DNA from: an uncultured Thiotrichaceae bacterium
Lineage (GTDB): Bacteria; Pseudomonadota; Gammaproteobacteria; SZUA-229
Assembly (NCBI GenBank): GCA_964522445.1
Contig: CAZFUY010000005.1
Coordinates: 1-52,129, forward strand
DNA: 52,129 bases
Direction: 5' to 3'
A model generated the notes under the pieces. The model saw only the letters and a list, made by a program, of their open reading frames with translations. It was not told the origin of the DNA and ran no database searches. This document shows, piece after piece, positions 7,467-35,406 of this stretch. The translations under genes and the position numbers were made by a program. The first letter of the stretch is position 1. Every line of letters begins with the position of its first letter.

Positions 7467-9017
7467 ATGCGTTTACCATTTGAACAATTATTACATGCCT
7501 TACTTGGTGAATGCTATGCCAGGCGTAATACTATTTTTATCATGTTTGTTATTATCAGCCTGGCTTTTCTGGCTGTGGGTTCTGTCTGGCCAAAGCGATA
7601 CACGTCTTTTACTATTATTCATGCCAATGAGACCAATATTCTACAACCACTGATGCAAGGCACAGCTGAAGCCACTCGAGCTACAGATTATGCCGCTAAT
7701 GCTCGAGAGATCATTTTTGGTGAAAGAATCATGAAGCATGTACTAAAAGATGCTGGCTGGTTAAAAACGAATCCTTCTGATGTTGAACAGGAAAAAATCA
7801 AAAAAGAAATTAGAGAGCATGTAGCAATTGATAGTCTGGGTGATAATTTAATAAGAATTGCTTATCAGGATAATAAGCCTATGCGTTCTTATATAACGGC
7901 TAAACGCATGGCTGAGCTTTTTATTAATGAAGGTGAGCGCGCAAAAATAGAAGAAAGTGAAGCGGCTTATCAGTTTATTGAAAAACAGGTTAATGAATAT
8001 CTCGCAAAATTAACAAAAGTGGAAGATGAACTAAGAGTTTTTCGTTCTGATAATCCTGATGCTCGCCCTGGGCTGGAAACCGAAGTTTCAACAAGAATTA
8101 GCGCATTAAAAACAAATATTGAACAGACTCGCTTATCCCTAAGAGAAGCATTAATACGTAAAAATTCACTTAAGGGGCAGTTATCTGGTGAAGCCGCTAT
8201 TGCTATTAGTCAATCAAAGGAAGGACAGTACCGAAGCAAAATAGCAGATTTGCAGGCTCGACTGGAAACCTTACGGCTGGATTATAAAGATACTTATCCA
8301 GATATAATTCGGATTAAGCATCAGATAGAAGATCTTAAAGGATCTATGAATAATGAAATACGGCGTCAGAAAGAAGCAAGAAATAAAGCTAAAAGCACAG
8401 GTACTACATATATAGATGAAGCGATTATATTGAATCCACTCTATCAGCAGCTAAGAAGTGATGCATCGACAACTGAAACTCAGATAGCGACTCTTAGAGC
8501 AAGAATTTCAGAAATGAATAAAATGCTTGAAAGCGAATATGAGCGAGCAAGAAGAATTCATGGCGGTGAAGCTGCTCTGTCAACATTGACACGAGATTAT
8601 CAGGTTAACCAGGAAATATACCAGGATTTATTAAGAAGAAGAGAAAGAGCTCGAGTCTCTCGAAGTATAGATCAGGAACAGCAGGGTCTTACATTTAAAA
8701 TTCAGGAGCCGGCCAAAATACCTCTATTACCCACAGGCTTACGTTTTCTTCATTTTGCTGTTGCAGGTCTGGTAGTTGGGTTGGGAACTCCAATAGGTCT
8801 TATTTTTGTCATGCTCCAAATAGATCCAAGAATACGTTTCTCTCATGTTATTTCATCTGAACTTGAACTGCCTGTATTAGCTGAAATAACGCGATTATCA
8901 AGTATTAATGATGAACGTAAAGCAAAAATTAATTTTATTTTACTTGCTGTTGGAACAATTATGGTTCTAGTTATTTATGGGTATGTTGGCTGGCTTAAAT
9001 TCACAGGGCAGATGTAA
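7467..9017 (+). CDS. Polysaccharide co-polymerase / chain-length determinant (Wzc N-terminal part, XrtA-system type)
   Basis: Two TM helices flanking a long coiled coil; YKDTYPDII motif; LTRDYQVN..YQDLL.R; IQEPAKIP before the second TM. Confidence 0.87.
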   Translation: MRLPFEQLLHALLGECYARRNTIFIMFVIISLAFLAVGSVWPKRYTSFTIIHANETNILQPLMQGTAEATRATDYAANAREIIFGERIMKHVLKDAGWLKTNPSDVEQEKIKKEIREHVAIDSLGDNLIRIAYQDNKPMRSYITAKRMAELFINEGERAKIEESEAAYQFIEKQVNEYLAKLTKVEDELRVFRSDNPDARPGLETEVSTRISALKTNIEQTRLSLREALIRKNSLKGQLSGEAAIAISQSKEGQYRSKIADLQARLETLRLDYKDTYPDIIRIKHQIEDLKGSMNNEIRRQKEARNKAKSTGTTYIDEAIILNPLYQQLRSDASTTETQIATLRARISEMNKMLESEYERARRIHGGEAALSTLTRDYQVNQEIYQDLLRRRERARVSRSIDQEQQGLTFKIQEPAKIPLLPTGLRFLHFAVAGLVVGLGTPIGLIFVMLQIDPRIRFSHVISSELELPVLAEITRLSSINDERKAKINFILLAVGTIMVLVIYGYVGWLKFTGQM

Positions 9018-11215: not shown

Positions 11216-12247
11216 ATGTATCTAGATTTCTTTGGACTCAAAGATTTTCCATTCAGAATAACACCTGATACAGATTATCTGTATATGAGTTCAGCGCATT
11301 CTCGTGCCAAGGCATATATGGAATACGCTATTTTTAACCGCGAAGGCTTTGTTGTAATAACAGGGGAAATAGGTTCTGGAAAGACAACTTTAATTAAAAA
11401 GTTATTAATGGAGCTTGATGAAAATGTAATAGTTGCAAAAATATTTCAAACTCAGCTTGATGAAGTAGAGTTGTTGCAGGCTATATTAGTTGAATTTGGT
11501 TTAAATCCATTTACAGCGAAAAAAGTAGAATTATTAAACATGATCAACCAGTTTCTTGTTAATAGTTACCTGGATGGGAAACAGGTGCTGTTGATAATTG
11601 ATGATGCTCAAAATCTTAGTAAGCGTGTTTTAGAAGAAGTTACCATGCTATCTAGCGTGGAAACACAAAAGGAAAAAATATTACATGTGATTTTAGTGGG
11701 CCAACCAGAACTTAATCATAAACTTGAAGCGCAGGATATGGAGCAACTTTTACAACGAGTTAGTTTACGTTATCACGTACGAGCGCTGACAGAAGAAGAA
11801 ACAAAAGAATATGTTATTCATCGACTTAAAATAGCTGGCTTAAATAATCAGGTATTTGAAGATTCAATTTATCCATATATTTTCGAATATAGCGGAGGCA
11901 TTCCCCGCTTAATTAATACTTTATGTGATACCGCACTTACATGCTCTTATGCTGATAATGAAAAAGAAGTTAATAACGATGAATTTAAGAGTGCCATTAA
12001 TGAACTTCAATGGGGAAAGTTTTCTGAGAGAATAAAAAATAACAATTCTCAGATGATTGAAAATGATAATCTTTATGACACAGATATGTTGGGCAAAGAT
12101 ATACTTAAATCAGCTGATGCAAGAGACCTGATTCAGGGAGCTTATGGTCCTATCTCATCCAGAGCATTAGTTGAAATATCTCGTCAGTTAAAAAGAATAG
12201 CAGATCATCTTGATGGTAAATCTAGAAATATAGGTGACAAAAACTAA
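11216..12247 (+). CDS. ExeA-like AAA ATPase, PEP-CTERM-locus type
   Basis: MYLDFFGLKDFPF, Walker A GEIGSGKT, Walker B LLIIDDAQNL, LVGQPEL, GGIPRLIN. Confidence 0.9.
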   Translation: MYLDFFGLKDFPFRITPDTDYLYMSSAHSRAKAYMEYAIFNREGFVVITGEIGSGKTTLIKKLLMELDENVIVAKIFQTQLDEVELLQAILVEFGLNPFTAKKVELLNMINQFLVNSYLDGKQVLLIIDDAQNLSKRVLEEVTMLSSVETQKEKILHVILVGQPELNHKLEAQDMEQLLQRVSLRYHVRALTEEETKEYVIHRLKIAGLNNQVFEDSIYPYIFEYSGGIPRLINTLCDTALTCSYADNEKEVNNDEFKSAINELQWGKFSERIKNNNSQMIENDNLYDTDMLGKDILKSADARDLIQGAYGPISSRALVEISRQLKRIADHLDGKSRNIGDKN

Positions 12248-12249
12248 AA

Positions 12250-14190
12250 ATGTGTGGCATTGCTGGCATATTAAATATTTCTGAAGGTTCTGCACCAGAA
12301 AGATTAGAATTAAAGAAAATGATTACGATGTTAAAGCACCGTGGTCCAGATGATTATGGGTACTATACTGATGCATCCATAGGCTTAGCACATGCTCGTT
12401 TAAGTATTATTGATCTTGAAAATGGTCATCAGCCTATTCATGATGGAGAGAAAAATATATGGATTGTATTTAATGGTGAGATATTTAATTACATTGAATT
12501 GCGTAAGGATCTAGTTAAAGATGGTGTTAAATTCTATACGCATTCAGATACTGAAGTTATTGTTCACTTATATAAAAAATACGGGCTTGATTTTGTAAAT
12601 TATCTTAATGGGCAGTTTTCAATTGCTTTATGGGATAAGACAAGAAAACGTCTTGTGTTAATAAGAGATAGAGTTGGAATTGACCCTTTATTTTATTATA
12701 AAGAAGACAACCGTTTTTACTTTGCATCAGAAATAAAATCGATTTTACCCTGCATGAAAAATAGTCCTCGACTAAATGCCCATGCATTAGATCAGTTATT
12801 AACATTTTGGTCTCCTGTATCACCTAATTCATTATTTGAGAATATTTATGAAGTTCGCCCAGGTGAAATGACCTTAATTGAAAATAATAATATTAGCCAT
12901 CATCGTTATTGGGAGTGGGAATTTCCTACTGATAATAGTGATAATTATTTGCAGGGTAGTGAGGACGAACTAGTAGAAGAGTTGCACGACAAAATGGTTG
13001 AAGCAACAAAAATACGTTTGCGCTCTGACGTGCCTGTTGCTGCTTATTTATCTGGCGGATTAGATTCGTCTGCTCTTGTTTCCATAATACATCATCATGG
13101 TAATGTACCGCTAAGAACATTCTCTATAGGCTTTAAAGATAAGAAGCTAGATGAATCTAGCTATCAGCAGAAACTTATTAAACATTTAGGTGCTGATCAC
13201 AGTAGTATTGTTTGTTCAACTAAAGATATATCAGATAATTTTGAAAAAACAATCTGGCATACTGAGTCTACTATACTTAGAACAGCCCCAACCCCCATGA
13301 TGTTGTTGTCAGGGCTGGTTCATGAAAACCAATATAAAGTAGTATTAACAGGCGAAGGTGCTGATGAGGTATTTGGAGGATATGATATTTTCAAAGAAGG
13401 TAAAATCAGGCAGTTTTGGGCAAAAAATATAAATTCAAATATTCGGCCACTTTTATTAAAGCGCCTGTATCCTTATTTAGATATCAGCAAGTCTAATTCA
13501 AGAGCTTATTTAGAAGCATTCTTTGGTATAGGTTTAGATCAACCTGATGTTCCATATTTTGCGCACTTACCCCGTTGGGATACGACCTCAAAATCAAAAG
13601 CGTTTTATTCAGAAGAAATGAAAGCAAGTTTAAATGAAAACTCTATTGATAAACTATCACAATCTTTGCATAAAAATATAAGCAGCTGGCATACATTTAA
13701 TCGATCTCAATATATTGAGGCAAGGTCATTAATGGCCGGTTATCTTTTATCCTCACAGGGCGATAGAATGCTTATGTCAAACTCGGTAGAAGGGCGTTTT
13801 CCCTTTCTGGATCATAATGTCATTGAATTTGCTAATAAACTACACCCTAAACTTAAAATGAAAGTTCTTAATGAAAAATATTTATTAAAAAAATCAATGA
13901 AGCGTTATTTGCCTGATGAAATTATTAATCGTCACAAACAACCTTATCGTGCTCCAGATATACCCGCTTTTTTTCATGACAAAATGCCAGATTATGTGAA
14001 TGACCTATTATCAGAGAGTTCAATCAAGGAGTCAGATTATTTTGATTCAAAGAAAGTAGCAATACTATTAAGAAAAATAAATGCAGGTAAGGCAACAGGT
14101 TATAAAGATAACATGACCCTGATGGCTATTTTATCTACACAAATGTGGCATCATCTGTTCATTAAAAATCATGCAAATTATATTCATTAA
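12250..14190 (+). CDS. asnB: Asparagine-synthase-like glutamine amidotransferase (copy 1)
   Basis: MCGIAG (Cys2 nucleophile), HRGPD, RLSIID, FNGEIFN, SGGLDSS, GEGADE, EGRFPFLD. Confidence 0.92.
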   Translation: MCGIAGILNISEGSAPERLELKKMITMLKHRGPDDYGYYTDASIGLAHARLSIIDLENGHQPIHDGEKNIWIVFNGEIFNYIELRKDLVKDGVKFYTHSDTEVIVHLYKKYGLDFVNYLNGQFSIALWDKTRKRLVLIRDRVGIDPLFYYKEDNRFYFASEIKSILPCMKNSPRLNAHALDQLLTFWSPVSPNSLFENIYEVRPGEMTLIENNNISHHRYWEWEFPTDNSDNYLQGSEDELVEELHDKMVEATKIRLRSDVPVAAYLSGGLDSSALVSIIHHHGNVPLRTFSIGFKDKKLDESSYQQKLIKHLGADHSSIVCSTKDISDNFEKTIWHTESTILRTAPTPMMLLSGLVHENQYKVVLTGEGADEVFGGYDIFKEGKIRQFWAKNINSNIRPLLLKRLYPYLDISKSNSRAYLEAFFGIGLDQPDVPYFAHLPRWDTTSKSKAFYSEEMKASLNENSIDKLSQSLHKNISSWHTFNRSQYIEARSLMAGYLLSSQGDRMLMSNSVEGRFPFLDHNVIEFANKLHPKLKMKVLNEKYLLKKSMKRYLPDEIINRHKQPYRAPDIPAFFHDKMPDYVNDLLSESSIKESDYFDSKKVAILLRKINAGKATGYKDNMTLMAILSTQMWHHLFIKNHANYIH

Positions 14191-14205
14191 ATATAGAGGT
14201 TAATT

Positions 14206-14451
14206 ATGGAATTTGAAAAAAAATTAAGAGCATTTATTCTGGAAAATTATCTATTTACAGATGACGAGTCACAACTAAACAATAGTGACTCTTTTCTTGA
14301 TTCTGGAATTATTGACTCAACAGGTATACTAGAAGTAATTACGTTTATTCAGGATGAATTAGATTTAACTGTTGAGGATGAAGAAATGATTCCTGAGAAT
14401 CTGGATTCTATTAATAATATTATTGCTTATGTGGCGAAGAAGACTGGATAA
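14206..14451 (+). CDS. Acyl carrier protein
   Basis: 81 aa, very acidic, GIIDSTG phosphopantetheine-attachment motif, PENLDSI; GAGG RBS. Confidence 0.9.
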   Translation: MEFEKKLRAFILENYLFTDDESQLNNSDSFLDSGIIDSTGILEVITFIQDELDLTVEDEEMIPENLDSINNIIAYVAKKTG

Positions 14452-14452
14452 A

Positions 14453-15976
14453 ATGGCTTCTTCTATTGTTGAAAGAGTTATAGAAAACTTTGTCAGTCAA
14501 ACTGACAAGGTTGCAATTCAACAACAAAATATTAATAAAACCTATCGAGATCTTCAGCTTGCCTCACAATCAATAGCATCATATCTTCTAAAAAATGGTT
14601 TGAATAAAGGCGATAGAGTTGCTCTGCTTATTGAGAATTCATTTGAATATGTTGCTGCTTATTATGGAGTGTTATTGTCAGGTGGAGTTGTTGTTGCACT
14701 TAATTCAGCAGCTAAATCTAATGATTTGTGTAACTGGATAAGCCACTCTGGGGCAAGCTGGTTATTTACTATAGGAAAAAATCCTGAAATAGAAGATATT
14801 ACAGTTGAACTTTCTAGTAAAATAAAATATGTAGTTGTTGGTAAACATAAAATTAAATCTAATTTAAATATTGAAAGTTTTGAGAGTGTTTTAACTACAG
14901 TTATAGTAGAGAAATTTCCTGTTTTATTAGGTGAAGATAATGCAACTATTATTTACACATCTGGAACAACGGGTCAACCTAAAGGCGTTACGCTAACACA
15001 TACCAATTTGTTAGCGAATATGGAGTCGATTCTTGAATACATGCCTGTTGTTAGCAATGATCGCTGTTTAAATGTTTTGCCCTTTTATTATTCCTATGGT
15101 AATTCAGTGCTCCATATCCATATGATGGCTGGTGCAACTATTGTTCTGGAAAATTCATTTGTATTTCCACATGTTGTATTAAAAAAAATGCAAGATGAGA
15201 AAATCACATCTTTTTCTGGAGTGCCATCAACTTATGCGCTTTTATTAAATAGAACTAAACTTTCAGATTTTGACTTATCTTCTATTCGATACATGACTCA
15301 GGCTGGCGGCGCTATGTTGCCAGCTCATATTGAGCAATTAAGGTCTTATTTGCCTGATGTGGAATTTATTGTCATGTATGGTCAAACTGAAGCAACTGCG
15401 AGACTTGCTTATTTACCCTATGATCAACTTGATGAAAAAATGTCATCAGCAGGCAAAGCTATACCTGGTGTAACTTTGGAAATTCGAGATAACCAGGGAA
15501 AAAAACTTCCTTTAGGGGGACAGGGTGAGATTTATGCTTCTGGTAAAAATATTATGAAATGTTACTGGAATGATGAAAAGCTAACATCTACCGTGCTATT
15601 TGATGGTTGGCTAAAAACAGGAGACCTGGCTAGTCAGGATGATGATGGATTTATTTATATTATTGGACGCAAAACTGAAATGATTAAATCGGGAGCACAT
15701 AGGATAAGCCCGCTTGATATTGAAGAATCAATTTTACGATGTAATGGTGTTGGTGAAGTTGCAGTTATAGGGAAAAAAGATGAAATATTAGGGCAGGTTA
15801 TCAAAGCATTTATTGTATCTAAAGAGAATGTAAAATTAGAAAAAAGAGATATACAACGTCATTGTAAGAAAAGTCTGGCTGCATACAAAATACCAAAATT
15901 TATAGAGTTTATTGATGAATTACCAAAAACAGCATCAGGAAAACTGAAGCGATTTGAATTAGAAGATTTATATTAA
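14453..15976 (+). CDS. AMP-dependent acyl-CoA/acyl-ACP ligase (ANL superfamily)
   Basis: YTSGTTGQPKG, MYGQTEA, KTGDL, GRKTEMIK, LPKTASGK. Start set to ATG 14453 just after the ACP stop rather than 14423. Confidence 0.9.
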   Translation: MASSIVERVIENFVSQTDKVAIQQQNINKTYRDLQLASQSIASYLLKNGLNKGDRVALLIENSFEYVAAYYGVLLSGGVVVALNSAAKSNDLCNWISHSGASWLFTIGKNPEIEDITVELSSKIKYVVVGKHKIKSNLNIESFESVLTTVIVEKFPVLLGEDNATIIYTSGTTGQPKGVTLTHTNLLANMESILEYMPVVSNDRCLNVLPFYYSYGNSVLHIHMMAGATIVLENSFVFPHVVLKKMQDEKITSFSGVPSTYALLLNRTKLSDFDLSSIRYMTQAGGAMLPAHIEQLRSYLPDVEFIVMYGQTEATARLAYLPYDQLDEKMSSAGKAIPGVTLEIRDNQGKKLPLGGQGEIYASGKNIMKCYWNDEKLTSTVLFDGWLKTGDLASQDDDGFIYIIGRKTEMIKSGAHRISPLDIEESILRCNGVGEVAVIGKKDEILGQVIKAFIVSKENVKLEKRDIQRHCKKSLAAYKIPKFIEFIDELPKTASGKLKRFELEDLY

Positions 15977-15987
15977 AGGAAATTATT

Positions 15988-16992
15988 ATGGCCACAAAAT
16001 TAACAGATAATATTCTTGATCTTGATTATGAAGCAGAGGCGGACCGCATTTGTGCTAATTTAAGAAAAATTCTGAGTAAAAAACTTAAAAGACGTGGTCT
16101 TGTTGTTGCCATGTCTGGAGGTATTGATAGTTCAGTTTCTTCTGCGCTTGCAGTAAGAGCTTTAGGAAAGAAGAAGGTTTTTGGCATCTTATTACCAGAG
16201 CAGGATTCTTCTGACGATAGCACTGATCGCGGAAAGATATTAGCTGAACATTATGGTATAGAATATATTAAACAAGATATTAGAGAGCCACTAGCTGCTA
16301 TTGGTTGTTATGAGTGGCGTGATCAGGCTATAAAGAAAACATTTCCTGAATATGGAGATGGCTGGAAAAATAAAATAATTATTTCTGGTGGTGCTGAAGG
16401 TACTTTTAATTATTTTAAATTAGTGGTGCAAAACCCTGCTGGTGAAATGATGGAGAAGCGCCTTGAGCTTAAAGAGTATTTACAAATTGTAGCCGCTACA
16501 AATTATAAACAACGTATACGTAAGGCAATTGAATACTTTCATGCTGATCGTTTGAATTATGCTGTTGTCGGTACACCTAATCGTCTTGAATATGATCAGG
16601 GTTTTTTCGTGAAAAATGGTGATGGTTCAGCTGATGTGAAACCAATTACACATTTATATAAATCACAGGTTTATGCTATGGCTAGACATTTACAATTACC
16701 AGAAGTAATTTGTAGCGCTATACCTACTACTGACACATATAGCTTACCCCAGGGACAGGATGAATTTTATTTTGCATTACCATATCAGAAAATGGATGTA
16801 GCATTATGGTCTCTTAATCATAATGTTCCTGCCTCTGAATTAGCTTCGTATTTAGAAATAACAAAAGAACAGGCCGAGTTTATATATAGAGATATTCATA
16901 GTAAACGGGTAACCACTCATTATATGCATGCAAAAGCTTACCTTGTAGATGATGAGCCATCTAGAGAGCTTGAAGCTGCGCTAAAGAAATAA
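15988..16992 (+). CDS. nadE: NAD synthetase (NadE)-like N-type ATP pyrophosphatase, no glutaminase domain
   Basis: PP-loop AMSGGIDSSV, NYKQRIRK, GTPNRLE..GFFVKNGDG.AD..PI..LYKSQV; central insertion relative to housekeeping NadE, so probably not the NAD-pathway enzyme. Confidence 0.8.
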   Translation: MATKLTDNILDLDYEAEADRICANLRKILSKKLKRRGLVVAMSGGIDSSVSSALAVRALGKKKVFGILLPEQDSSDDSTDRGKILAEHYGIEYIKQDIREPLAAIGCYEWRDQAIKKTFPEYGDGWKNKIIISGGAEGTFNYFKLVVQNPAGEMMEKRLELKEYLQIVAATNYKQRIRKAIEYFHADRLNYAVVGTPNRLEYDQGFFVKNGDGSADVKPITHLYKSQVYAMARHLQLPEVICSAIPTTDTYSLPQGQDEFYFALPYQKMDVALWSLNHNVPASELASYLEITKEQAEFIYRDIHSKRVTTHYMHAKAYLVDDEPSRELEAALKK

Positions 16993-16993
16993 A

Positions 16994-18046
16994 ATGGCAT
17001 ATGAATTACGAGAATTAGTCCTGTCTGAGGATAGAGACTTTCTGGTCGATATACTGGAAAGTAATCTTCAGTTTTCTAATGGTGCCAATAATGTTATTAA
17101 CTGGAATAATGAAAAATCCAGATATCCAGCACAATGTATGATTTTAGAGAATGTGTCTGAGAATAATAAAAAAGAAAAAATTGGCAATATCTGTACTTTT
17201 TATCGTGATTTTAATTATTTTGGTAAAAGGATGAAAGTTGGTATTTTTGGCAATTTAGTTATTGATGAAAAATACCGTAGCCTTCAACCTGCACTAATTT
17301 TAACAAAAGGAAATGCTAAAAAATCGGTTGATAGCTTGCCTTTCCTTTATGTGTTTCCCAATGAAAAAGCTATAGGTGTTTTTAAGATATCAGGCTTCAA
17401 GATTATAGGAGACTTAATCCGATATGCGCATATAAATAGCTATAATTGTTTTCTTGGAGAAAGACTTCCTGTTATAGGAAACATTGCTGGTTCTTTTATT
17501 GATCTGGTTAAAAAAATCTTTTTCTCAATTCAATACATGATTAAGGCTAATAATTATACATCGCGAATTGAAAATACGTTCTCTTCTTCTTTAAAAAAAC
17601 TGTTTAAAAATAGTTTGTTGAGTGAATTTATATGTAATTATCGTGATAATGAGTATATGAACTGGCGTTATATTGATAATCCTGAATATGATTTTCAAAT
17701 ATTAAATTGTTACAGGAAAAAAGAGAAAGAAGAAGAGTTGGTTGCAACCTGCGTTTTTGATGTTGATAAAAATGTATTATTTATTAGAGACCTTATTTTC
17801 AAAGATGAAAAGTCATTTTATATTGTCATAGGCGCATTAAAAAAATGGTCTACTAAAAATAATATTAAGTCTATTTCAATTAGATTTATGGGGGCATCTA
17901 TTGTTAAGAGGCTCCTTAAACATAATGGGTTTTATGAACGTGAATCTGGAAGAGTTGTTGTTACAAAAACAAATAATAAATCTATGCTAGCCAATCTTAC
18001 TGATCACAATAACTGGTTTATTCTTGATGGGGATGAAGATATATAA
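16994..18046 (+). CDS. GNAT-family (two-domain, Fem-like) acyltransferase
   Basis: NLVIDEKYR motif A, YVFPNEKA, R..EYMNWRY..NP pattern typical of EPS-locus GNATs. Confidence 0.7.
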   Translation: MAYELRELVLSEDRDFLVDILESNLQFSNGANNVINWNNEKSRYPAQCMILENVSENNKKEKIGNICTFYRDFNYFGKRMKVGIFGNLVIDEKYRSLQPALILTKGNAKKSVDSLPFLYVFPNEKAIGVFKISGFKIIGDLIRYAHINSYNCFLGERLPVIGNIAGSFIDLVKKIFFSIQYMIKANNYTSRIENTFSSSLKKLFKNSLLSEFICNYRDNEYMNWRYIDNPEYDFQILNCYRKKEKEEELVATCVFDVDKNVLFIRDLIFKDEKSFYIVIGALKKWSTKNNIKSISIRFMGASIVKRLLKHNGFYERESGRVVVTKTNNKSMLANLTDHNNWFILDGDEDI

Positions 18047-18067
18047 TGTTAATTATATGGTGTTTTT

Positions 18068-18493
18068 ATGGAATGTGATTTAGATCATATATGCTTGGCC
18101 GTAAGATCAATAGAAAAAGCTGCAGATAAGATATGTCAATATCTTGGTTATGAAATTAAAACAAAGAAAATATTAAATACTAAACAGGATGTTTATGTTC
18201 AGTTTCTTGGAAAACCAGGATCAATAGATTTTAAATTAATTATGCCGGGAAGTTTAAAATCTCCTATTATTTCGTTCCTCAAGAAGAATGGAGAAGGCTT
18301 ACATCATGTGGGTCTTAAAACAGACAATGTAAAAAAAGCACTGGAAGAGGTTAAAAAAAAGGGGGCTATATCTACACTCCCTCCTGAGAAGGGCGAGGCA
18401 TTTTGCAATGAATTAATCGCTTTTGCTTATTTAGGCAATGGTTTAAATGCCGAATTCATAGATACAGATAAACGAGTTTTTATAGAAGAATAA
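18068..18493 (+). CDS. VOC-family protein (methylmalonyl-CoA epimerase-like)
   Basis: LDHICLAVRSIEKA, SPIISFLKKNGEGLHHVGL, NAEFID. Confidence 0.82.
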   Translation: MECDLDHICLAVRSIEKAADKICQYLGYEIKTKKILNTKQDVYVQFLGKPGSIDFKLIMPGSLKSPIISFLKKNGEGLHHVGLKTDNVKKALEEVKKKGAISTLPPEKGEAFCNELIAFAYLGNGLNAEFIDTDKRVFIEE

Positions 18494-18495: not shown

Positions 18496-19356
18496 ATGAC
18501 TAAAAAAATTATTAATGCCTTTACAGTGGATGTTGAGGACTTCTTTCAGGTTGAGGCTTTTAGCCAGGTAATAAATAGAGATTTATGGGATGATTTTTCC
18601 TGCCGAGTTGAAAAAAATACGGATTCTATTTTAGGTTTGTTGGATGATGCAAATGTAAAAGGAACTTTTTTTGTTCTTGGCTGGATTGCAAAACGTTATC
18701 CTCATGTAGTTAAGAGGATTTCTGATTTAGGTCATGAAGTGGCATCTCATGGTATGACTCATAAATTAATTTATAACCAGAATCAAAATACATTTAAACA
18801 GGAAACACTTGATTCAAAGCTATTGCTAGAAGATTTGTCACAACAACCAGTGAATGGCTATAGAGCAGCTACATATTCAATTACAAATAAATCATTATGG
18901 GCGTTAGATATATTAGTTGAAGCTGGTTTTAAGTATGACTCTAGTATCTTTCCTATGAGGCATGATAGATATGGTATATCAGACGCATGTCCATTGCCTA
19001 ATGTGCTTAAGACACCAAATAACTCAAGCATTATAGAGTTCCCAATTTCTACTGTGAGAAGTGAATTTTTTACTTTACCTATTGCGGGTGGCGGTTATTT
19101 TCGACTTTTTCCATATTCAGTTACACGCTGGGGATTGTCTTCCATTAACAGGAAGAATAATCCTTTTGTCTTCTATATACACCCCTGGGAAGTCGACTCT
19201 AATCAGCCCAGGATAAAAAATATAAGCAAATTCACAAAGTTTAGGCATTACAATAATCTTTCCCGTTGCCACCCAAGGCTAAAAAAATTATTAGCAGATT
19301 TTGATTTTAATACTATGCAACATGTATTAGATAATACGGCACTTATTGATTTGTAA
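18496..19356 (+). CDS. Polysaccharide deacetylase, XrtA-system type (CE4 + DUF3473-like)
   Basis: NAFTVDVEDFFQV, TFFVLGW, HEVASHG..H, GYRA, YDSSIFP, GGGYFRL, FYIHPWE.D. Confidence 0.9.
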   Translation: MTKKIINAFTVDVEDFFQVEAFSQVINRDLWDDFSCRVEKNTDSILGLLDDANVKGTFFVLGWIAKRYPHVVKRISDLGHEVASHGMTHKLIYNQNQNTFKQETLDSKLLLEDLSQQPVNGYRAATYSITNKSLWALDILVEAGFKYDSSIFPMRHDRYGISDACPLPNVLKTPNNSSIIEFPISTVRSEFFTLPIAGGGYFRLFPYSVTRWGLSSINRKNNPFVFYIHPWEVDSNQPRIKNISKFTKFRHYNNLSRCHPRLKKLLADFDFNTMQHVLDNTALIDL

Positions 19357-30844: not shown

Positions 30845-32281
30845 ATGAACTTTATAAGTCTACAATACTTTGTATTTTTTATATTTGTATTTTCTGCATA
30901 TTGGCATCTCTCAAGAAAAAATCAGAATATATTTCTTTTATTATCAAGCTGGTTTTTTTATGCGAACTGGGATTGGCGATTTTTAAGCCTGATTCTAATT
31001 TCTACTATTATAGATTATGTAAGCGGGAAAAAAATATATGATAATAATAGCTTAAAAATAAAACGACTATGGCTTACCATAAGCTTAGTAACTAATTTAT
31101 CTATTTTAGCATATTTCAAATATGCGAACTTTTTTATTGATAGTTTTATAAGTTTTACAAATAATTTGGGGTTTTCTGTAGCTCCAACTACTTTAAATGT
31201 GATATTACCTGTTGGTATTTCATTTTATACCTTTCAAAGTCTTAGTTATAGTCTTGATATATATCGGAATAAATTAAAACCATCAAATTCCTTAATAAAT
31301 TTTGCAACATTTGTTGCTTTCTTTCCACAACTTGTAGCTGGTCCTATTGTTAGAGCAAAAGAATTTTTGTATCAACTTGAGGTAGATAGGCAGTTTTCAG
31401 GTTCTGATTTTGAAAGTGGAATTATTCGATTCTTAAAAGGTTTCTTTAAAAAAGCGTTCATAGCTGATGGAATTGCTATTTATCTGGTTGATCCAGTATT
31501 TAGCAATCCAGAAAGTTACTCATCTGGAATGTTATGGCTAGCAATGTTTGGTTATGCGGTACAAATATATGCAGATTTCTCTGGGTATTCTGATATGGCA
31601 ATTGGTTCTGCAAGAATGCTAGGCTTTAAGTTACCAGAGAATTTTAACTTCCCTTATCTGGCAACAAGTTTTTCAGATTTCTGGCAGCGTTGGCATATGA
31701 CCATGTCTCGATTTTTTAGAGACTATGTTTATATTGCGCTGGGAGGAAACAGGGTTGGCCCTGTTCGTCATATAGCAAACTTATCAGTGACGACTTTAAT
31801 TAGTGGTTTGTGGCATGGTGCCGGATGGAATTTTGTGCTTTGGGGGGGGCTACATGGTGTCTATATTGCAATTAATCATATTATGTCAGCTACACTTAAA
31901 AAGAATAAACCTGTGGCTTGTTTGATATTAAGACTTACCCTTATACCTCGCTGGTTAAGTGTACAATTATTTGTTTGTTTTGCGTGGGTTTTATTTAGAT
32001 CGTCTAGTCTTTCTGATGCAATGCTTTATCTGGAAAGAATGTTCTTATTTGAACCTGGAGAGCAAATCATATTAAATGCAACTATTTATCTATGTTTTAC
32101 TGCTTTTTTTATTGATCATTTATATGGCTGGATTAAAGAGCATCATGTTCATATTTATGAATATTTTGATTCCGCAACGCTGGGTATACAGTTTAAAGCC
32201 ACAATATATACCTGTATGGTGCTCTTTTTGTTTTATTTTATTCCTGAGGGTGCTGCACCATTTATTTATTTTCAATTCTAA
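30845..32281 (+). CDS. MBOAT O-acyltransferase (AlgI/PatA-like), copy 1
   Basis: LPVGISFYTFQ, FFPQLVAGPIVR, DFSGYSDMA, FWQRWH, GLWHGA. Confidence 0.93.
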   Translation: MNFISLQYFVFFIFVFSAYWHLSRKNQNIFLLLSSWFFYANWDWRFLSLILISTIIDYVSGKKIYDNNSLKIKRLWLTISLVTNLSILAYFKYANFFIDSFISFTNNLGFSVAPTTLNVILPVGISFYTFQSLSYSLDIYRNKLKPSNSLINFATFVAFFPQLVAGPIVRAKEFLYQLEVDRQFSGSDFESGIIRFLKGFFKKAFIADGIAIYLVDPVFSNPESYSSGMLWLAMFGYAVQIYADFSGYSDMAIGSARMLGFKLPENFNFPYLATSFSDFWQRWHMTMSRFFRDYVYIALGGNRVGPVRHIANLSVTTLISGLWHGAGWNFVLWGGLHGVYIAINHIMSATLKKNKPVACLILRLTLIPRWLSVQLFVCFAWVLFRSSSLSDAMLYLERMFLFEPGEQIILNATIYLCFTAFFIDHLYGWIKEHHVHIYEYFDSATLGIQFKATIYTCMVLFLFYFIPEGAAPFIYFQF

Positions 32282-32332: not shown

Positions 32333-33523
32333 ATGAATTATAAAGAATCTCAACAACCTGTATGGAAGCAACTGTTTCAATTGCATAAGTTATCAAAAAA
32401 ATTATTTTATTTTTTAATTTTTATTTTTGCAATAGAGTTATTTTCTATATTTTTTATGCCGTATTTATTGTCATCTACAGATTATTTGAGTCTTTTTTTA
32501 AAAAAAGAAGCTAAAGAAGCTACTGTTCGTTTTTTTAGAAATGAAAACTCAGTAATTCCAGATAAGATGCTAGGCTGGGTAAATAAGAAAAATTTTAAGC
32601 GAAAAAACTGGGTTATTGATGAGCATGGATCAAGAGCAACTCATGAGTTTACAGAAAAACCTTCTAAAAATATCAGGGCACTTTTTCTTGGTAGTTCAAT
32701 GATTAATGGATCATCCCATGTGACTAATAATGAGACCATATCAGCTTACCTGGAAAATAATAATATTGAATCTTTGAATTTTGCAACAATGCTTTATACA
32801 TTAGATCAGGTTTTTTTAATGTATAAGGAGTATTTAACTAAATATAATTCAAATATAATTATTGTTGGAATAGATAATGACCCTGTCTCAGGTTTAAAAA
32901 ATATTTATATTCCATTTATATCTCCTGAAGAGATAAATATGCCATATATGAAACCAAGATATAAACTTGTTGGTGATAAGCTGGAGTTAATAAAATTTAA
33001 TCTAGATGATTTTAAGATGATTTTAAATGATGATAGTATAGTTGAAGGGCTAAAAGATAAAGATGGTTTTTATTATGTTTTTGATTTATATAAACATTTT
33101 GGTATTACACCAATAGCATCAGGCTTTCTATATATCTATAAAAAAATTAGTAATCTTGAAAAATATCTAAAAGAAGATCTGACAGATAATGCTTTATTAT
33201 TTTCAATAATGGATAAGATGGTAAGAGAGGCAGAAGAAAATAATGCTCATGTTATTTTTATAACATTGGCTGATAGTGTGATTTATGATAAAGATAATAT
33301 TCGTAATCGTTTAACTGATTACTATGCGATACGGAAGGATCTTATGCTGAAAAAAGATTATAATATACTAGATTCAAGGGAGCTATTTAGAAATAGTGGT
33401 TATGATATCGATGATTTGTATGCAGATGATGGTGTTCATTTAACTAAAAAGTCAAATAAACTAATTGCTGAAAAGCTTAAATCAATAATTCATAAATTAA
33501 TAGAAAAAAATATTATTAATTAA
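32333..33523 (+). CDS. Membrane-anchored SGNH-fold protein (AlgJ/PatB-like partner), copy 1
   Basis: One N-terminal TM, D..LGW, FLGSSM (block I), DDGVH (DxxH); directly after the MBOAT. Confidence 0.72.
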   Translation: MNYKESQQPVWKQLFQLHKLSKKLFYFLIFIFAIELFSIFFMPYLLSSTDYLSLFLKKEAKEATVRFFRNENSVIPDKMLGWVNKKNFKRKNWVIDEHGSRATHEFTEKPSKNIRALFLGSSMINGSSHVTNNETISAYLENNNIESLNFATMLYTLDQVFLMYKEYLTKYNSNIIIVGIDNDPVSGLKNIYIPFISPEEINMPYMKPRYKLVGDKLELIKFNLDDFKMILNDDSIVEGLKDKDGFYYVFDLYKHFGITPIASGFLYIYKKISNLEKYLKEDLTDNALLFSIMDKMVREAEENNAHVIFITLADSVIYDKDNIRNRLTDYYAIRKDLMLKKDYNILDSRELFRNSGYDIDDLYADDGVHLTKKSNKLIAEKLKSIIHKLIEKNIIN

Positions 33524-33540: not shown

Positions 33541-35406
33541 ATGTGTGGTATTTCAGGAATATACAATTTTAAAGATAAGCATGTAGATAATACAATCTTA
33601 GAAAAGATGAAAGAAATTATTTTACATCGTGGTCCCGATGGATCTGGAATATATACTAGTAAAAATATTGGTATGGTTCATACAAGGCTTAGTATCCAGG
33701 ATTTATCTGAAGCAGCACATCAACCAATGTGGGATGATGATTCTCAATGTTGTATATCATATAATGGAGAAATTTATAATTTTCATTCTTTGCGTGATGA
33801 TTTAATTAATGAAGGTATTAAATTTAATTCTACTGGTGATACAGAAGTATTATTAAGGGCCTGTATTCATTATGGCGTAGAGGCCACATTACCAAAATTA
33901 AATGGAATGTTTGCATTTTCTTTTTGGAATGATAAAACCAGGGAATTATGGATTGGTCGTGATCGAATGGGGATCAAACCATTATATTATACCAATGTAA
34001 ATAATAGTTTATTGTTTGCATCAGAGATGAAAGCACTAACTCCTTTTATAAATAACTTAAAGCCAGACACATCTGTTCTGTTTGAGATATTAAATGGTGG
34101 TACAAGCTGGGAACCCTTCACACTTTTTTCTAATATTAATGCATTAAACCCAGGGCATTATATTCATTTAAGCCCGGATACAAAAGAAGTAGAACAAAAA
34201 GAATACTTTTCTATATTTAGTCTTGTTGATAAATCATTATATCAAGATTATTCAAAAGCCAGCCTCCAGGATATGACTGATATGTTTGGTCAAATCATGA
34301 ATGACAGCGTTAAAATACATGCAATATCTGATGCACCTGTAGCAACCTTAATAAGTGGAGGTATAGATTCATCATTAATTTCAACACTAACTAATAAATA
34401 TTGTAATGGTATTTCTTTATATCATGCAGATGTAGTTGGTGAAAATAGTGAAAAAAAATATGCAAAGCAGGTTGCAGACCATCTTAATCTGAAATTTGTC
34501 TATGCTGAAATGACTCAGAAGACATATGTTGACGATCTTGTTGAAACGACTTTTTCACATGAAACACCTTCAGCTTATCATCCTAATGATGTCCCTTTTC
34601 AGATTATCTCAAAGCGAGCACATGAAGATGGGATTAAAGTTCTATTAACAGGGGAAGGGGCTGATGAACTATTTATTGGATATGGTCATGCTTCAAAGCA
34701 AATATTAAGAAATAAAATTCAATATTCTTTAAGTCATCTCCCATTGTTTGGAAAAGTTAATACTTTAATTCAAAAAATATTTCCATATGGTTCAGGTAAA
34801 AGCATGATTGAGACTCTATCAACCCGTGGAGTTTCACAGAGCTGGGAAAATAGAGCAAAAAATACTTATGCTTTCATTAACGATGATGTGGAGAGGGCAG
34901 CACTAATACATAGCTCAGTATATCAGAAAGCGCATTTAAACTCTTTGTTGCAAAGAAATGATAGAATGGGCATGATGCATGCGCTTGAAAGCCGGATTCC
35001 ATTCTTAGAAAATGAAATGGTTAAATTTGCAGTTAATTTGCCATTGAAATTTAAGCACCCTGAATCATGGATCTCTATTGCACGAGGAAATCCACTTACT
35101 AGAAACAAAACGGTAGTTAGAGAATCTGCTCGTCAACTTCTTCCTGAAAATATTATTAAGCGTAAAAAGGTTGGTTTTCCAATAACCCCCGAAACCTATA
35201 TGCATTTAAAAGAAGATTTTTTCCGCGATGGTTTTATTGAAAACACACTTGAAATTAAACACTCAGAAATGAAAAATTTACTGTCAGATCTTTCATCTGA
35301 TATACGTTGGAATCTTTTTTCAACAGAGTTATTTGGTAAATTATTTTTTCTTGGAGAAGATCGTTCAAAATTGCGTGAAATAATTCAGAGTTATAGTATT
35401 AATTAA
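33541..35406 (+). CDS. asnB: Asparagine-synthase-like amidotransferase (copy 2)
   Basis: MCGISG, HRGPD, RLSIQD, YNGEIYN, SGGIDSS, GEGADELF, DRMGM..ALESRIPFL. Confidence 0.92.
   Translation: MCGISGIYNFKDKHVDNTILEKMKEIILHRGPDGSGIYTSKNIGMVHTRLSIQDLSEAAHQPMWDDDSQCCISYNGEIYNFHSLRDDLINEGIKFNSTGDTEVLLRACIHYGVEATLPKLNGMFAFSFWNDKTRELWIGRDRMGIKPLYYTNVNNSLLFASEMKALTPFINNLKPDTSVLFEILNGGTSWEPFTLFSNINALNPGHYIHLSPDTKEVEQKEYFSIFSLVDKSLYQDYSKASLQDMTDMFGQIMNDSVKIHAISDAPVATLISGGIDSSLISTLTNKYCNGISLYHADVVGENSEKKYAKQVADHLNLKFVYAEMTQKTYVDDLVETTFSHETPSAYHPNDVPFQIISKRAHEDGIKVLLTGEGADELFIGYGHASKQILRNKIQYSLSHLPLFGKVNTLIQKIFPYGSGKSMIETLSTRGVSQSWENRAKNTYAFINDDVERAALIHSSVYQKAHLNSLLQRNDRMGMMHALESRIPFLENEMVKFAVNLPLKFKHPESWISIARGNPLTRNKTVVRESARQLLPENIIKRKKVGFPITPETYMHLKEDFFRDGFIENTLEIKHSEMKNLLSDLSSDIRWNLFSTELFGKLFFLGEDRSKLREIIQSYSIN

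Follow-up and report, generated by a model that had tools for sequence, protein, structure and literature searches.

The closest described counterpart of the genes discussed here is the Sinorhizobium meliloti pSymB operon asnB-smb20651-smb20650-nadE, reportedly the subject of work by Ramos-Vega et al. in 2009 (Microbiology 155:257, doi 10.1099/mic.0.022079-0). That work is said to have found C12:0 and C18:0 fatty acids as the acyl groups on the carrier protein in E. coli. According to PMC7232532, smb20650 is co-transcribed with smb20651, E. coli co-expressing the two yields acylated SMb20651, and SMb20650 neither replaces FadD nor handles oleate as a CoA ligase substrate. The carrier protein SMb20651 has also been shown to receive a phosphopantetheine group. 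A 2017 paper (PMC5686131) states that the function of the operon still needs investigation. An initial annotation of the locus described below had named no biochemical characterisation of such cassettes; this was too strong, since some experimental work exists on the ACP and ligase of S. meliloti (PMC7232532).

Here we describe a related cassette from an uncultured Thiotrichaceae bacterium, which probably assembles, on a small carrier protein, an acyl decoration with an amide group. The DNA analysed, called the window, is a stretch of 52,129 nt of contig CAZFUY010000005.1 (GCA_964522445.1), read on the forward strand. Its AsnB, ACP, ligase and NadE-like genes have the order and orientation of asnB-SMb20651-SMb20650-nadE, and S. 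meliloti plasmid CP050561.1 likewise carries asnB, ACP, acyl-CoA ligase and nadE in the order of the window. Identities between the window and the pSymB operon are 44% for AsnB, 39% for the ACP, 34% for the ligase and 53% for the NadE-like protein. The pSymB nadE is an extra NadE paralog and falls in a common clade with the window gene. The window copy lies inside an EPS operon, whereas the S. meliloti copy lies outside one, with aldo/keto reductases, an unrelated VOC protein and minCDE around it. The window also has an adjacent double GNAT and a methylmalonyl-CoA-epimerase-like VOC protein, and S. meliloti has neither beside its operon. Finally, the S. meliloti ligase is of subtype II, with Asp in LPLAFDYGLY, whereas the window ligase is of subtype I, with Ser. 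The window cassette is a further member of this widespread type of cassette.

Results

Organization of the locus

The segment from 12250 to 18493 is filled exactly by six plus-strand ORFs, as read from the window. An XrtA-type ATPase gene lies on one side and a DUF3473 deacetylase gene on the other, all co-directional. The features referred to in the text are as follows:

11216..12247, +, XrtA/PEP-CTERM-type P-loop ATPase, upstream flank (TIGR03015 305.5 bits, just under the cut-off of 324.5; AAA_22 92.9 bits)
12250..14190, +, AsnB1, glutamine-dependent AsnB-type amidotransferase, 646 aa (Asn_synthase 308 bits; GATase_7 156 bits; TIGR01536 510 bits, cut-off 267)
14206..14451, +, dedicated acyl carrier protein (ACP), 81 aa (PP-binding 19.9 bits, just under the cut-off of 20.8)
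14453..15976, +, ANL (acyl-AMP-forming) ligase, presumed ACP loader (AMP-binding 262 bits; AMP-binding_C 77 bits)
15988..16992, +, NadE-like PP-loop ATP pyrophosphatase of PRK00876 type, 334 aa (NF002048 485.7 bits, cut-off 313; NAD_synthase 154 bits in two stretches)
16994..18046, +, 350-aa double-GNAT-like acyltransferase of a divergent subfamily, presumed off-loading enzyme (membership via relatives)
18068..18493, +, VOC-superfamily protein, methylmalonyl-CoA-epimerase-like, 141 aa (Glyoxalase_4 57 bits; TIGR03081 60.8 bits, cut-off 115)
18496..19356, +, XrtA-system polysaccharide deacetylase (CE4 + DUF3473), downstream flank (TIGR03006 386.8 bits, cut-off 276)
30845..32281, DltB-like MBOAT (TIGR04091 146 bits, DltB cut-off 375; Pfam MBOAT 108 bits)
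32333..33523, membrane-anchored SGNH-like protein, 3' of the MBOAT in the same operon (weak GDSL/SGNH match)
33541..35406, second AsnB in the window

From the ATPase to the deacetylase the gaps are 2, 15, 1, 11, 1, 21 and 2 nt, with ATG 14453 taken as the ligase start; the listed TTG at 14423 would give a 29-nt overlap with the ACP gene. No intergenic terminator-like site was found on the plus strand between the cassette genes. The ORFs, and gaps of 1-21 nt, agree with the initial annotation, which had described six tightly spaced genes between the ATPase and the deacetylase. Its word "inserted" is fair, because the two flanking genes adjoin directly in related loci L014, L029 and L104.

In the surrounding operon the XrtA-type export protein, the chain-length determinant and the DUF3473 deacetylase exceed their family cut-offs, and the XrtA-type ATPase and the tyrosine kinase fall just below theirs. 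No exosortase was found in the genome's own assembly, which is 88.7% complete. TM-like segments were found in none of the six cassette proteins, and hydropathy revealed neither a signal peptide nor a TM segment in the DUF3473 deacetylase.

AsnB1, ACP and ligase

AsnB1 has an N-terminal Cys2 glutaminase followed by a PP-loop synthetase with SGGLDSS. It reaches only 420 bits against TIGR03108 (cut-off 817), and its best solved relative is 7ylz, deposited as a "hydroxyamidotransferase". The ACP carries the DS-motif serine (...IIDSTGILE...) and weakly matches specialised ACPs in NCBIfam (OlsHI ACP 50 bits, DltC 26.5 bits). The top NCBIfam match of the ligase is PRK06187 (392 bits, cut-off 476), TIGR03098 gives 335 bits (cut-off 592), and its PDB neighbours are acyl-, oxalyl-, malonyl- and o-succinylbenzoyl-CoA ligases.

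Cassette ligases fall into two subtypes, the window enzyme being of the fatty-acyl/dicarboxylate-CoA-ligase-like subtype I (motif LPFYYSYGNS). It has Ser where amino-acid-activating (NRPS/DltA-type) enzymes carry the amino-binding Asp, a residue found there in only 10 of 74 cassette ligases. Because Ser replaces this Asp, the ligase substrate is probably not an amino acid.

The NadE-like protein is a paralog of canonical NadE

Like NadE (EC 6.3.1.5; P. horikoshii 2e18, F. tularensis 3fiu, B. subtilis 1ee1), the NadE-like protein has an SGGIDSS PP-loop, and the two agree in the C-terminal half of the fold; the score against 2e18 is 99.6 bits. It differs from the canonical enzyme in an insertion of about 45-50 aa (residues 99-164 stand in for 14 residues of 2e18), in changed positions, in forming its own clade, in being a second copy in the carriers checked, and in its linkage to an ACP and a ligase. 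Of 48 near-invariant positions defined from 10 canonical NadE domains, 25 are kept and 23 changed; at many of the changed ones another residue is fixed in 77-81 of the 81 members of the NadE-like clade. In a quick tree this clade stands apart from canonical NadE with SH-aLRT 99.

The genome's own canonical NadE is a 541-aa frame on contig C24 (255.6 bits against PF02540). Across 41 genomes from the family and the class (this one and 40 relatives), NF002048 exceeds its cut-off in only 4. All 41 have another, weaker match in a long frame, and canonical NadE frames are present in all 40 relatives. The five other carriers checked, both Desulfobacula genomes included, all have a canonical NadE besides the NadE-like protein. 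The initial annotation had proposed a search for a separate housekeeping nadE and a NadE tree, and both point the same way: judged by sequence and phylogeny, the NadE-like gene is an additional paralog, distinct from the housekeeping NAD synthetase. In two Desulfobacula loci the NadE-like gene stands without cassette partners among housekeeping genes; these copies nest within the cassette clade of the quick tree. Among 14 well-known control genomes, one has an NF002048 match above cut-off.

A conserved four-gene module

A NadE-like relative is encoded in 589 of 596 candidate stretches from species-representative genomes, and the best 80 were kept as related loci. Partners were counted in the 62 of these with at least 4.6 kb upstream. 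A ligase is present in 60, an ACP in 59, an AsnB1 homolog within 6 kb of the NadE-like gene in 52, and all three in 52; the NadE-like gene occurs without AsnB within 6 kb in 10. The ligase gene often ends directly at the NadE-like start. Median identity to the window proteins is 51% for AsnB, 50% for the ACP, 43% for the ligase and 66% for the NadE-like protein, the last figure being biased by the choice of loci on NadE-like similarity. AsnB-ACP-ligase-NadE-like is a conserved four-gene module.

Its surroundings are less constant. Within 8 kb, any homolog of the window EPS genes occurs in only 42 of the best 80 loci and a CE4 deacetylase homolog in 34. A DUF3473 deacetylase homolog of at least 150 bits is found in 10 (directly beside the cassette in L104 and L105), and an XrtA-type marker in only 17. 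In L060 a true TIGR03098 ligase and a TIGR03099 decarboxylase lie directly 5' of ACP-ligase-NadE-like. An MBOAT homolog was found within 8 kb in none of the best 80, and none was found in the cassette loci of three relatives, of which only L104 spans 19 kb. Gene-neighbourhood comparison bears out the earlier remark that similar cassettes exist in other EPS loci, as the module recurs, often in such loci. The proposal had been said to fall if the genes did not co-occur elsewhere or if the NadE-like gene were the only NAD synthetase; they do co-occur and a separate canonical NadE exists, so neither objection applies.

Accessory acyltransferase and VOC protein

The 350-aa protein itself has no Pfam or NCBIfam match and only 4 close homologs apart from itself, and its AF2 model, from 5 sequences, is poor (pLDDT 58.6). 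Its family profile reaches 1862 cluster representatives. Acetyltransf_9 is matched by 54 of 100 relatives, which have an N-terminal GNAT at about residues 10-140 and a second GNAT-like stretch at about 225-310. Its protein-atlas neighbours are GNAT clusters (scores 0.96-0.97), and one natural KS-AT-ACP fusion carries a domain of this family. Membership in a double-GNAT family is supported through these relatives only, so the earlier GNAT label stands by way of them and is not readable from the window protein itself. At the central Gly of the consensus R-x-x-G-x-A motif of the family, the window subfamily has Gln instead.

The top PDB matches of the VOC protein are methylmalonyl-CoA epimerases (E 3e-10). 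Its homologs occur in 3 of the best 80 loci (L011, L039 and L047), and genes like that for the 350-aa protein in 29, directly downstream in 15 of 72. The initial annotation had counted both as cassette parts; at 3/80 and 29/80 they are accessories, not core. Other GNAT-type or acyltransferase partners are pepcterm_femAB (L007), Acetyltransf_6 (L074) and two hexapeptide transferases (L081). Partners for the transfer step vary among loci yet keep recurring.

Discussion

We tentatively read the six genes, with a little less than even confidence in the whole scheme, as a tailoring module that belongs to the EPS operon, works in the cytoplasm and depends on a carrier protein. The ligase would adenylate a non-alpha-amino carboxylic acid and thioesterify it to the holo-ACP. 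One or two further carboxyls of the tethered unit would then become carboxamides, through AsnB1 with glutamine and the NadE-like protein with ammonia, both presumably working via acyl-adenylates. The window VOC protein might epimerise or isomerise the thioester-activated unit, and the double GNAT would pass the completed acyl unit on from the ACP to an amine. As acceptor, a sugar amine on a nucleotide- or lipid-linked EPS precursor, exposed by the neighbouring cytoplasmic CE4 deacetylase, would be likeliest, and the product would end up on the EPS. The net outcome would be a deacetylate-then-reacylate edit comparable to NodB/NodA/NodF or LpxC/LpxD.

The logic put forward earlier, of ligase plus carrier, amidation and acyl transfer, fits the conserved partners and the fusion of KS-AT-ACP with a GNAT-family domain. 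Of the initial interpretation as a whole, the module, its recurrence, the NadE paralogy and this general logic stand; the Dlt analogy, the ammonia hand-over and the VOC and GNAT proteins as core members do not. The hand-over, in which the NadE-like protein would take ammonia from the AsnB Ntn domain, finds no support: AsnB1 has a complete synthetase domain of its own, PP-loop included, and in 10 of 62 loci no AsnB lies within 6 kb of the NadE-like gene.

Some observations sit uneasily with the tailoring scheme. Copies of the cassette are also found where no EPS locus can be recognised, S. meliloti being one example, and the NadE-like gene occurs alone in Desulfobacula. The NadE-like protein is the best-conserved member while the ligase has two subtypes. 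The window GNAT subfamily lacks the central Gly of the family motif. The NadE-like protein exceeds the NF002048 cut-off for NAD(+) synthase, and since one control genome has such a match as well, the subfamily may include a true NAD synthetase.

Since more variation would be expected of an enzyme acting on the loaded acid, the NadE-like protein may act on an invariant non-ACP substrate. Its conservation, at about 65% identity across both ligase subtypes, is in line with a division of labour that we consider unlikely, though the strongest of the alternatives. Here ACP, ligase and GNAT would place a plain, perhaps fatty, acyl chain on a sugar by N-acylation; the resulting decoration would be lipid-like or hydrophobic, comparable to those of Nod factor and lipid A. 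The NadE-like protein and AsnB1 would amidate uronic-acid carboxyls on nucleotide sugars or repeat units and not a carrier-bound group, the dinucleotide-type pocket of the NadE-like protein taking an NDP-uronic acid. The top family matches of the ligase are long- and medium-chain acyl-CoA ligases, and AsnB-type enzymes are standard in XrtA loci without an ACP (TIGR03108; the second AsnB at 33541-35406). The C12:0 and C18:0 chains reportedly found on the S. meliloti ACP in E. coli also suit such a route, and would leave no free carboxyl to amidate. Against it, the NadE-like gene is nearly always joined to the ACP-ligase pair (60/62 and 59/62 loci), and this linkage holds outside EPS loci, S. 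meliloti having no adjacent uronic-acid polymer genes. SMb20650 also does not handle oleate as a CoA ligase substrate (PMC7232532).

That linkage bears equally on whether the NadE-like protein is a genuine second NH3-dependent NAD+ synthetase serving a local NAD demand, which would reduce the cassette to AsnB, ACP, ligase and GNAT. The protein does score above the cut-off of NCBI's "NAD(+) synthase" model NF002048, as does one in a control genome; it keeps the PP-loop and several catalytic-region positions, and it stands alone among housekeeping genes in two Desulfobacula genomes. Those copies nest inside the cassette clade, however, every carrier checked has a canonical NadE, the distribution is patchy (4/41 genomes), and the changed positions and the 45-aa insertion set the protein apart; we regard this alternative as very improbable. 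Equally hard to credit is a Dlt-like route, in which the ligase and ACP would charge a small acid, and the MBOAT and SGNH-like proteins would carry it across the membrane and esterify it to EPS outside the cytoplasm. The MBOAT and SGNH-like genes do follow one another in the operon of the cassette, and the ACP weakly matches DltC. Yet none of the best 80 related loci has an MBOAT homolog within 8 kb, the window MBOAT scores far below the DltB cut-off, and MBOAT plus SGNH is also the usual pair for ACP-independent O-acetylation. With Ser in place of the amino-binding Asp, the ligase gives the DltA/DltC analogy of the initial annotation no footing, and two amidating enzymes and the GNAT would be left without a role.

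The tailoring module that we favour can be set beside other known systems. XrtA/PEP-CTERM EPS loci have an accessory set whose families are attributed to Haft et al. 2006. It comprises a ligase (TIGR03098), a PLP decarboxylase (TIGR03099), an amidotransferase (TIGR03108) and a FemAB-like protein (TIGR03019), defined by genome context (NCBIfam/TIGRFAMs). The window likewise places ANL ligase and carrier logic inside an XrtA-type locus, but its ligase and AsnB1 fall below the family cut-offs (335 against 592 bits and 420 against 817 bits), and it lacks the decarboxylase and FemAB protein and adds a NadE-like enzyme.

Amidation of an ACP- or CoA-tethered carboxyl is known from OxyD, an AsnB homolog that makes the malonamyl starter of oxytetracycline. 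AsnB1, with its glutaminase Cys2 and PP-loop, is likewise an AsnB-family enzyme next to a carrier; the window differs in having no PKS and a second amidating enzyme of NadE type. Deacetylation of an amino sugar followed by reacylation with a dedicated ACP occurs in Nod factor (NodB/NodA/NodF(E)) and lipid A (LpxC/LpxD) synthesis. This comparison concerns only how the systems work: the window has a CE4-type deacetylase beside a specialised ACP and a putative N-acyltransferase, all predicted to be cytoplasmic. Its transferase has no homology to NodA or LpxD, and its acyl group would come from a ligase and amidating enzymes rather than from KS or FAS steps.

Six genes inside an exopolysaccharide operon

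The exopolysaccharide (EPS) operon of the window runs along the + strand at about 6741-36491, and its opening genes are of the XrtA/PEP-CTERM type. The export protein, chain-length determinant and DUF3473 deacetylase of the XrtA system all exceed their curated cut-offs, and the tyrosine kinase and ATPase fall just below theirs.

Genes of the EPS operon with their family-model scores
Export protein, + strand: TIGR03027, 203.8 bits (cut-off 180)
Chain-length determinant, + strand: TIGR03007, 328.8 bits (cut-off 278.85)
Tyrosine kinase, + strand: TIGR03018, 201.7 bits (cut-off 230.65, just below)
Outer-membrane barrel, + strand: early gene of the operon
ATPase, upstream of the cassette, + strand: TIGR03015, 305.5 bits (cut-off 324.5, just below)
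DUF3473 deacetylase, downstream of the cassette, + strand: TIGR03006, 386.8 bits (cut-off 276.2)

Between the ATPase and the deacetylase lie six open reading frames. They are real, they were correctly described in the initial annotation, and their coordinates are exactly as it gave them:

12250-18493, + strand: cassette of AsnB1 (amidotransferase), acyl carrier protein (ACP), ANL ligase, NadE-like protein, 350-aa GNAT-like protein (O350) and VOC protein
16994-18046, + strand: O350, within this cassette

From the ATPase through to the deacetylase the gaps are 2, 15, 1, 11, 1, 21 and 2 nt if the ligase is taken to begin with the ATG at 14453. No terminator-like site was seen on the + strand in the intergenic stretches between the ATPase, the six genes and the deacetylase, and a simple hydropathy scan found no transmembrane-like segment in the six cassette proteins or the DUF3473 deacetylase. 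We refer to the first four genes, AsnB-ACP-ligase-NadE-like, as the core. Downstream of the DUF3473 deacetylase come Wzx, Wzy, two further CE4 deacetylases, glycosyltransferases, an MBOAT protein with an SGNH-like partner, and a second amidotransferase, AsnB2. Several other features of the operon and its edge are of interest in their own right:

4011-6589, + strand: 2Fe-2S subunit and molybdopterin-binding subunit of the xanthine-dehydrogenase/aldehyde-oxidoreductase family, just upstream of the EPS operon
24030-25619, + strand: 529-aa operon protein whose sole match is short and APH/kinase-like, 28 bits
26794-27885, + strand: 363-aa operon protein with an N-terminal hydrophobic segment and no match in Pfam or NCBIfam
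30845-33523, + strand: DltB/AlgI-like MBOAT and a 396-aa membrane-anchored protein
33541-35406, + strand: AsnB2, 621 aa, near the operon end; passes TIGR01536 and scores 296.3 bits against TIGR03108 (cut-off 816.9)

The MBOAT scores 108 bits against its Pfam model, and the 396-aa protein that follows has a weak GDSL/SGNH match; the two probably serve as a separate pair for O-acylation of the EPS. The large subunit of the molybdopterin pair has a twin-arginine-like N-terminus (SRRHF). Homologs of this pair adjoin the core, in four arrangements, in 5 of the 80 related loci described below (L007, L011, L016, L019 and L070), which could reflect either common descent among related Gammaproteobacteria or a connection in function.

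The window's own genome assembly (88.7% complete, 219 contigs) gave no match to the exosortase models PF09721 and TIGR03109. Four PEP-CTERM domain matches were found in it (contigs C45, C119, C43 and C58; 23-24.7 bits against a cut-off of 20.7). The exosortase is either on the missing part of the assembly or absent.

The NadE-like protein is a paralog

The NadE-like protein (334 aa) scores 485.7 bits against NF002048 (PRK00876, 'NAD(+) synthase'; cut-off 313) and 154 bits against PF02540, and the SGGxDS signature of the PP-loop is present as SGGIDSS at residues 43-49. The initial annotation had made its reading of this protein depend on a separate housekeeping nadE. Such a copy exists: a 541-aa frame on contig C24 of the same genome scores 255.6 bits against PF02540, so the NadE-like gene is not the sole copy but a paralog. 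The NF002048 cut-off is exceeded in 4 of 41 genomes (the window's own and 40 relatives) and in 1 of 14 control genomes, while all 41 also contain a long frame with a weaker NadE-type match, of 532-602 aa in 38 of them and shorter in three. All of five other carriers checked also possess a canonical NadE, including both Desulfobacula genomes (those of loci L055 and L057), where it measures 267-271 aa.

The NadE-like protein departs from canonical NadE both in invariant positions and in length. Its residues 99-164 stand in place of 14 residues of Pyrococcus horikoshii NadE, an insertion of about 45 aa. When 81 members of the clade were aligned with 10 canonical NadE domains (two short, eight long), the clade was found to keep 25 of the 48 near-invariant canonical positions, the PP-loop among them, and to change the other 23, many to another fixed residue. 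In a quick maximum-likelihood tree a long branch (SH-aLRT 99) separates the 10 canonical proteins from the others, and the stand-alone Desulfobacula copies and the S. meliloti copy nest inside the cassette clade. The NadE-like protein is probably not an NAD synthetase; a caveat is the control genome in which the NF002048 cut-off is exceeded too.

The other core proteins and the VOC protein

AsnB1 combines a Cys2 glutaminase domain with its own PP-loop synthetase domain and passes TIGR01536 (510 bits). It falls below the cut-off of TIGR03108, the XrtA amidotransferase model (419.7 bits against 816.9). The initial annotation had proposed that the NadE-like protein takes ammonia from AsnB. This finds no support: AsnB1 itself carries a synthetase domain, and in 10 of 62 related loci a NadE-like gene has no AsnB nearby. 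The 81-aa ACP has the DS serine, scores just below the Pfam cut-off and gives weak matches to specialised ACPs.

The ligase is an ANL enzyme, closest among family models and solved structures to acyl-, oxalyl-, malonyl- and o-succinylbenzoyl-CoA ligases. Cassette ligases show two motif types, LPFYYSYGNS with close variants, as in the window (subtype I), versus LPLAFDYGLY in S. meliloti (subtype II). At the A4-like motif position, where NRPS and DltA enzymes hold the alpha-amino group with an Asp, 10 of 74 cassette ligases have this residue; the window ligase has Ser there, and an aspartate-like acid is therefore not adopted as the substrate of this copy. Ligase type clusters on the NadE-like tree, with 9 and 8 changes versus 30 and 18 in shuffles, though kin share labels.

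The VOC protein belongs to its superfamily by Glyoxalase_4 (57.3 bits against 27). With TIGR03081, the methylmalonyl-CoA epimerase model, it stays below the equivalog cut-off (60.8 bits against 114.95); its best PDB relatives are methylmalonyl-CoA epimerases (E 3e-10).

The four-gene core recurs in several phyla

Homologs of the NadE-like protein number more than 8000 at E < 1e-10 among the matches listed. Of 596 candidate stretches in species-representative genomes, 589 hold a gene for a relative; the best 80 of these, at 62-71% identity, were taken as related loci. They come from Gamma- and Betaproteobacteria, Myxococcota, Desulfobacterota, Verrucomicrobiota, Gemmatimonadota and Acidobacteriota. 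Partners were scored within 6 kb in those 62 loci whose sequence extends 4.6 kb or more upstream of the NadE-like gene: a ligase accompanies it in 60, an ACP in 59, an AsnB1 homolog in 52, and all three in 52. Over all 80 loci the counts are 76, 70 and 55 for ligase, ACP and AsnB1 homolog. Partners are missing in eight loci that have no nearby AsnB, in one with a ligase only, and in the two Desulfobacula loci. The commonest gene order is AsnB-ACP-ligase-NadE-like. The expectation that the cassette genes co-occur elsewhere is thus borne out for the core. Clustering of the unexplained neighbor ORFs yielded no new universal partner, and these ORFs were mostly overlapping spurious frames from high-GC genomes.

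The wider context was probed with the window's own proteins, so the following counts over the 80 loci are lower bounds: an O350-like gene is present in 29 (directly downstream in 15 of 72), a VOC homolog in 3, a CE4 deacetylase homolog in 34, any homolog of the window's EPS genes in 42, and an XrtA-type marker in 17, and no MBOAT homolog was found near the core in any of the 80. Other transferases adjoin the core in some loci, namely an XrtA FemAB-family protein in L007 (TIGR03019, 359 bits), an Acetyltransf_6 protein in L074 and two hexapeptide transferases in L081. Two loci with subtype II ligases carry a small-domain (MTS/PrmC-like) N-methyltransferase between the ligase and the NadE-like gene (L017, 3028-3924; L058, 7070-7966). 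There is no methyltransferase gene in the window cassette.

Within the window's own taxonomic family the core lies after the deacetylase in one genome (G008), before it and with an O350 homolog in another (G004), and next to a different CE4 deacetylase in a third (G019). Among members of one bacterial family the core can therefore precede or follow the DUF3473 deacetylase, and these differing placements make it a movable unit within such loci.

Two kinds of isolated copy were also seen. In one related genome a NadE-like gene survives as its C-terminal half alone, with an internal TAA stop (G005:C7:107991-108506, retrieved as L091/L107); no cassette partners occur within 16 kb of it, which suggests a remnant left by decay of the module. 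Both Desulfobacula MAG loci have a NadE-like gene, 64% identical to that of the window, without ACP and ligase neighbors. In L057, the one whose context was inspected, the gene (7992-8990) stands alone among the housekeeping genes relA/spoT, proS and ispG.

The 350-aa protein

The label GNAT that the initial annotation had attached to the 350-aa protein holds through its family, as 54 of 100 aligned relatives match Acetyltransf_9, and finds no match to a GNAT model in the protein's own sequence. Searched up to E 10, Pfam gave only Methyltransf_18 at E 0.2, and NCBIfam gave nothing. A related-locus search with the protein alone found no relative, and a word-based search found four close homologs besides itself (55-76% identity). 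A profile built from the close homologs retrieved 1862 cluster representatives; E is <=1e-10 for 883, and almost all are 340-360 aa long. Acetyltransf_1 was matched by 41 of the 100 aligned relatives.

In this family a GNAT domain covers roughly residues 10-140 at the N-terminus, and some members have a second, GNAT-like region near 225-310, which gives a double arrangement like that of Eis or N-myristoyltransferase. Matches of the profile to the PDB are weak (2ozg, E 4.4e-4; N-myristoyltransferases, 5e-4), and the protein-atlas neighbors of the 350-aa protein are GNAT clusters. One family representative is a KS-AT-ACP-(O350 domain) fusion and another (P0200) joins a small-domain methyltransferase to an O350-type GNAT. 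A structure model built from five sequences was poor, with a pLDDT of 58.6 and values under 50 in the N-terminal half. Membership of the GNAT superfamily is supported at the level of the family, and not from the window protein directly. An hhalign comparison of its family with one Acetyltransf_6/FemAB-like protein, that of L074, gave no sign of kinship (probability 0.2), and the 350-aa protein is not put forward as a homologous replacement for FemAB.

A possible pathway and its alternatives

From the observed genes we infer a course in which every chemical step is conditional. The ligase would put a carboxylic acid on the ACP. AsnB1, the NadE-like protein or both would then amidate free carboxyls of the tethered unit, which in the window copy only might also be epimerised by the VOC protein. 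The double GNAT would finally move the unit to an amine, plausibly one freed on the EPS precursor by the adjacent cytoplasmic deacetylase. Taken as a whole, this sequence of loading, amidation, epimerisation and transfer falls a little short of an even chance in our estimation.

A broader joint reading, which we offer more tentatively, is that the PRK00876-type 'NAD synthases', a group of over 8000 proteins spread across more than five phyla, are mis-annotated amidators of a carrier-tethered acid. With AsnB, ACP and ligase they would make an undescribed amide-bearing N-acyl substituent, which here the double GNAT would transfer to a de-N-acetylated sugar of an exosortase-type EPS, with the VOC epimerase setting its stereochemistry.

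The main rival to the carrier-tethered amide would have AsnB1 and the NadE-like protein amidate uronic acids rather than a carrier-bound group, while the ACP branch gives a plain acyl chain. C12:0 and C18:0 forms of SMb20651, the S. meliloti counterpart of the ACP, were reportedly seen in E. coli by Ramos-Vega et al. in 2009; beside this stands the recurrence of the amidating genes with ACP and ligase as one core. We consider this alternative unlikely, though it is the strongest of the competing explanations. Far less probable is that the NadE-like protein is a genuine NAD synthetase, as its family model is named and its intact PP-loop would allow; the canonical copy on C24 and the 23 altered positions speak for a paralog with another role. 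A Dlt-like route through the downstream MBOAT is similarly improbable. The initial annotation had likened the pairing of ligase and carrier to Dlt logic, and the MBOAT is of the DltB/AlgI-like kind. In contrast to a true D-alanylation system, the ligase has Ser in place of Asp, the ACP scores 26.5 bits against 68 for the DltC model, the MBOAT scores 146 bits against 375 for DltB (TIGR04091), and the related loci lack an MBOAT near the core, which takes away the ground for that analogy.

If the carrier-tethered amide is correct, thousands of genes annotated as 'NAD(+) synthase', 'asparagine synthase' and 'long-chain-fatty-acid-CoA ligase' would belong to one unsolved pathway, and this pathway would decorate bacterial surface polymers, which influence flocs, biofilms and symbioses. 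Reported from S. meliloti in 2009, the core has stayed uncharacterised. Carriers that grow in culture include S. meliloti, Pseudoxanthomonas mexicana DSM 17121, Steroidobacter gossypii and Luteimonas terricola, so that ACP mass spectrometry could address the question directly.

Comparison with known systems

The cassette differs from the ligase/decarboxylase set associated with exosortase A. The window ligase scores 335 bits against TIGR03098 (cut-off 592), and the window operon has no TIGR03099 decarboxylase. Locus L060 has both true members beside its core (TIGR03098, 748 bits against 592; TIGR03099, 564 against 478). No literature was found that joins the cassette gene names with exosortase, PEP-CTERM or polysaccharide.

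The closest known counterpart is an operon of S. meliloti. The NadE-like protein matches 116 plasmid records at 53-55% identity, most of them from Sinorhizobium megaplasmids. In S. meliloti CP050561.1 the annotated asnB, acyl carrier protein, acyl-CoA ligase and nadE lie on one strand in the order of window 12250-16992. All four core proteins are homologous over their full length to these counterparts, with identities of 44% over 638 aa for AsnB, 39% over 76 aa for the ACP, 34% over 503 aa for the ligase and 53% over 97% of the query for NadE. A VOC protein near the S. meliloti operon was ruled out as a homolog of that in the window (E 0.17).

In the relevant passages of PMC7232532, smb20650 (ligase) is co-transcribed with the ACP gene smb20651, the SMb20651 holo-ACP, formed with AcpS, is acylated in E. 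coli when SMb20650 is co-expressed, and SMb20650 is unable to replace FadD for oleate. The statement in PMC5686131 on this operon is that its function still needs investigation. The window ACP, to judge by its DS-motif serine, would be the counterpart of phosphopantetheinylated SMb20651. The window cassette is thus one more instance of a widespread cassette whose outline is known from S. meliloti, and what is new in it is its variant composition only: a subtype I ligase, a divergent double GNAT and a rare VOC protein.
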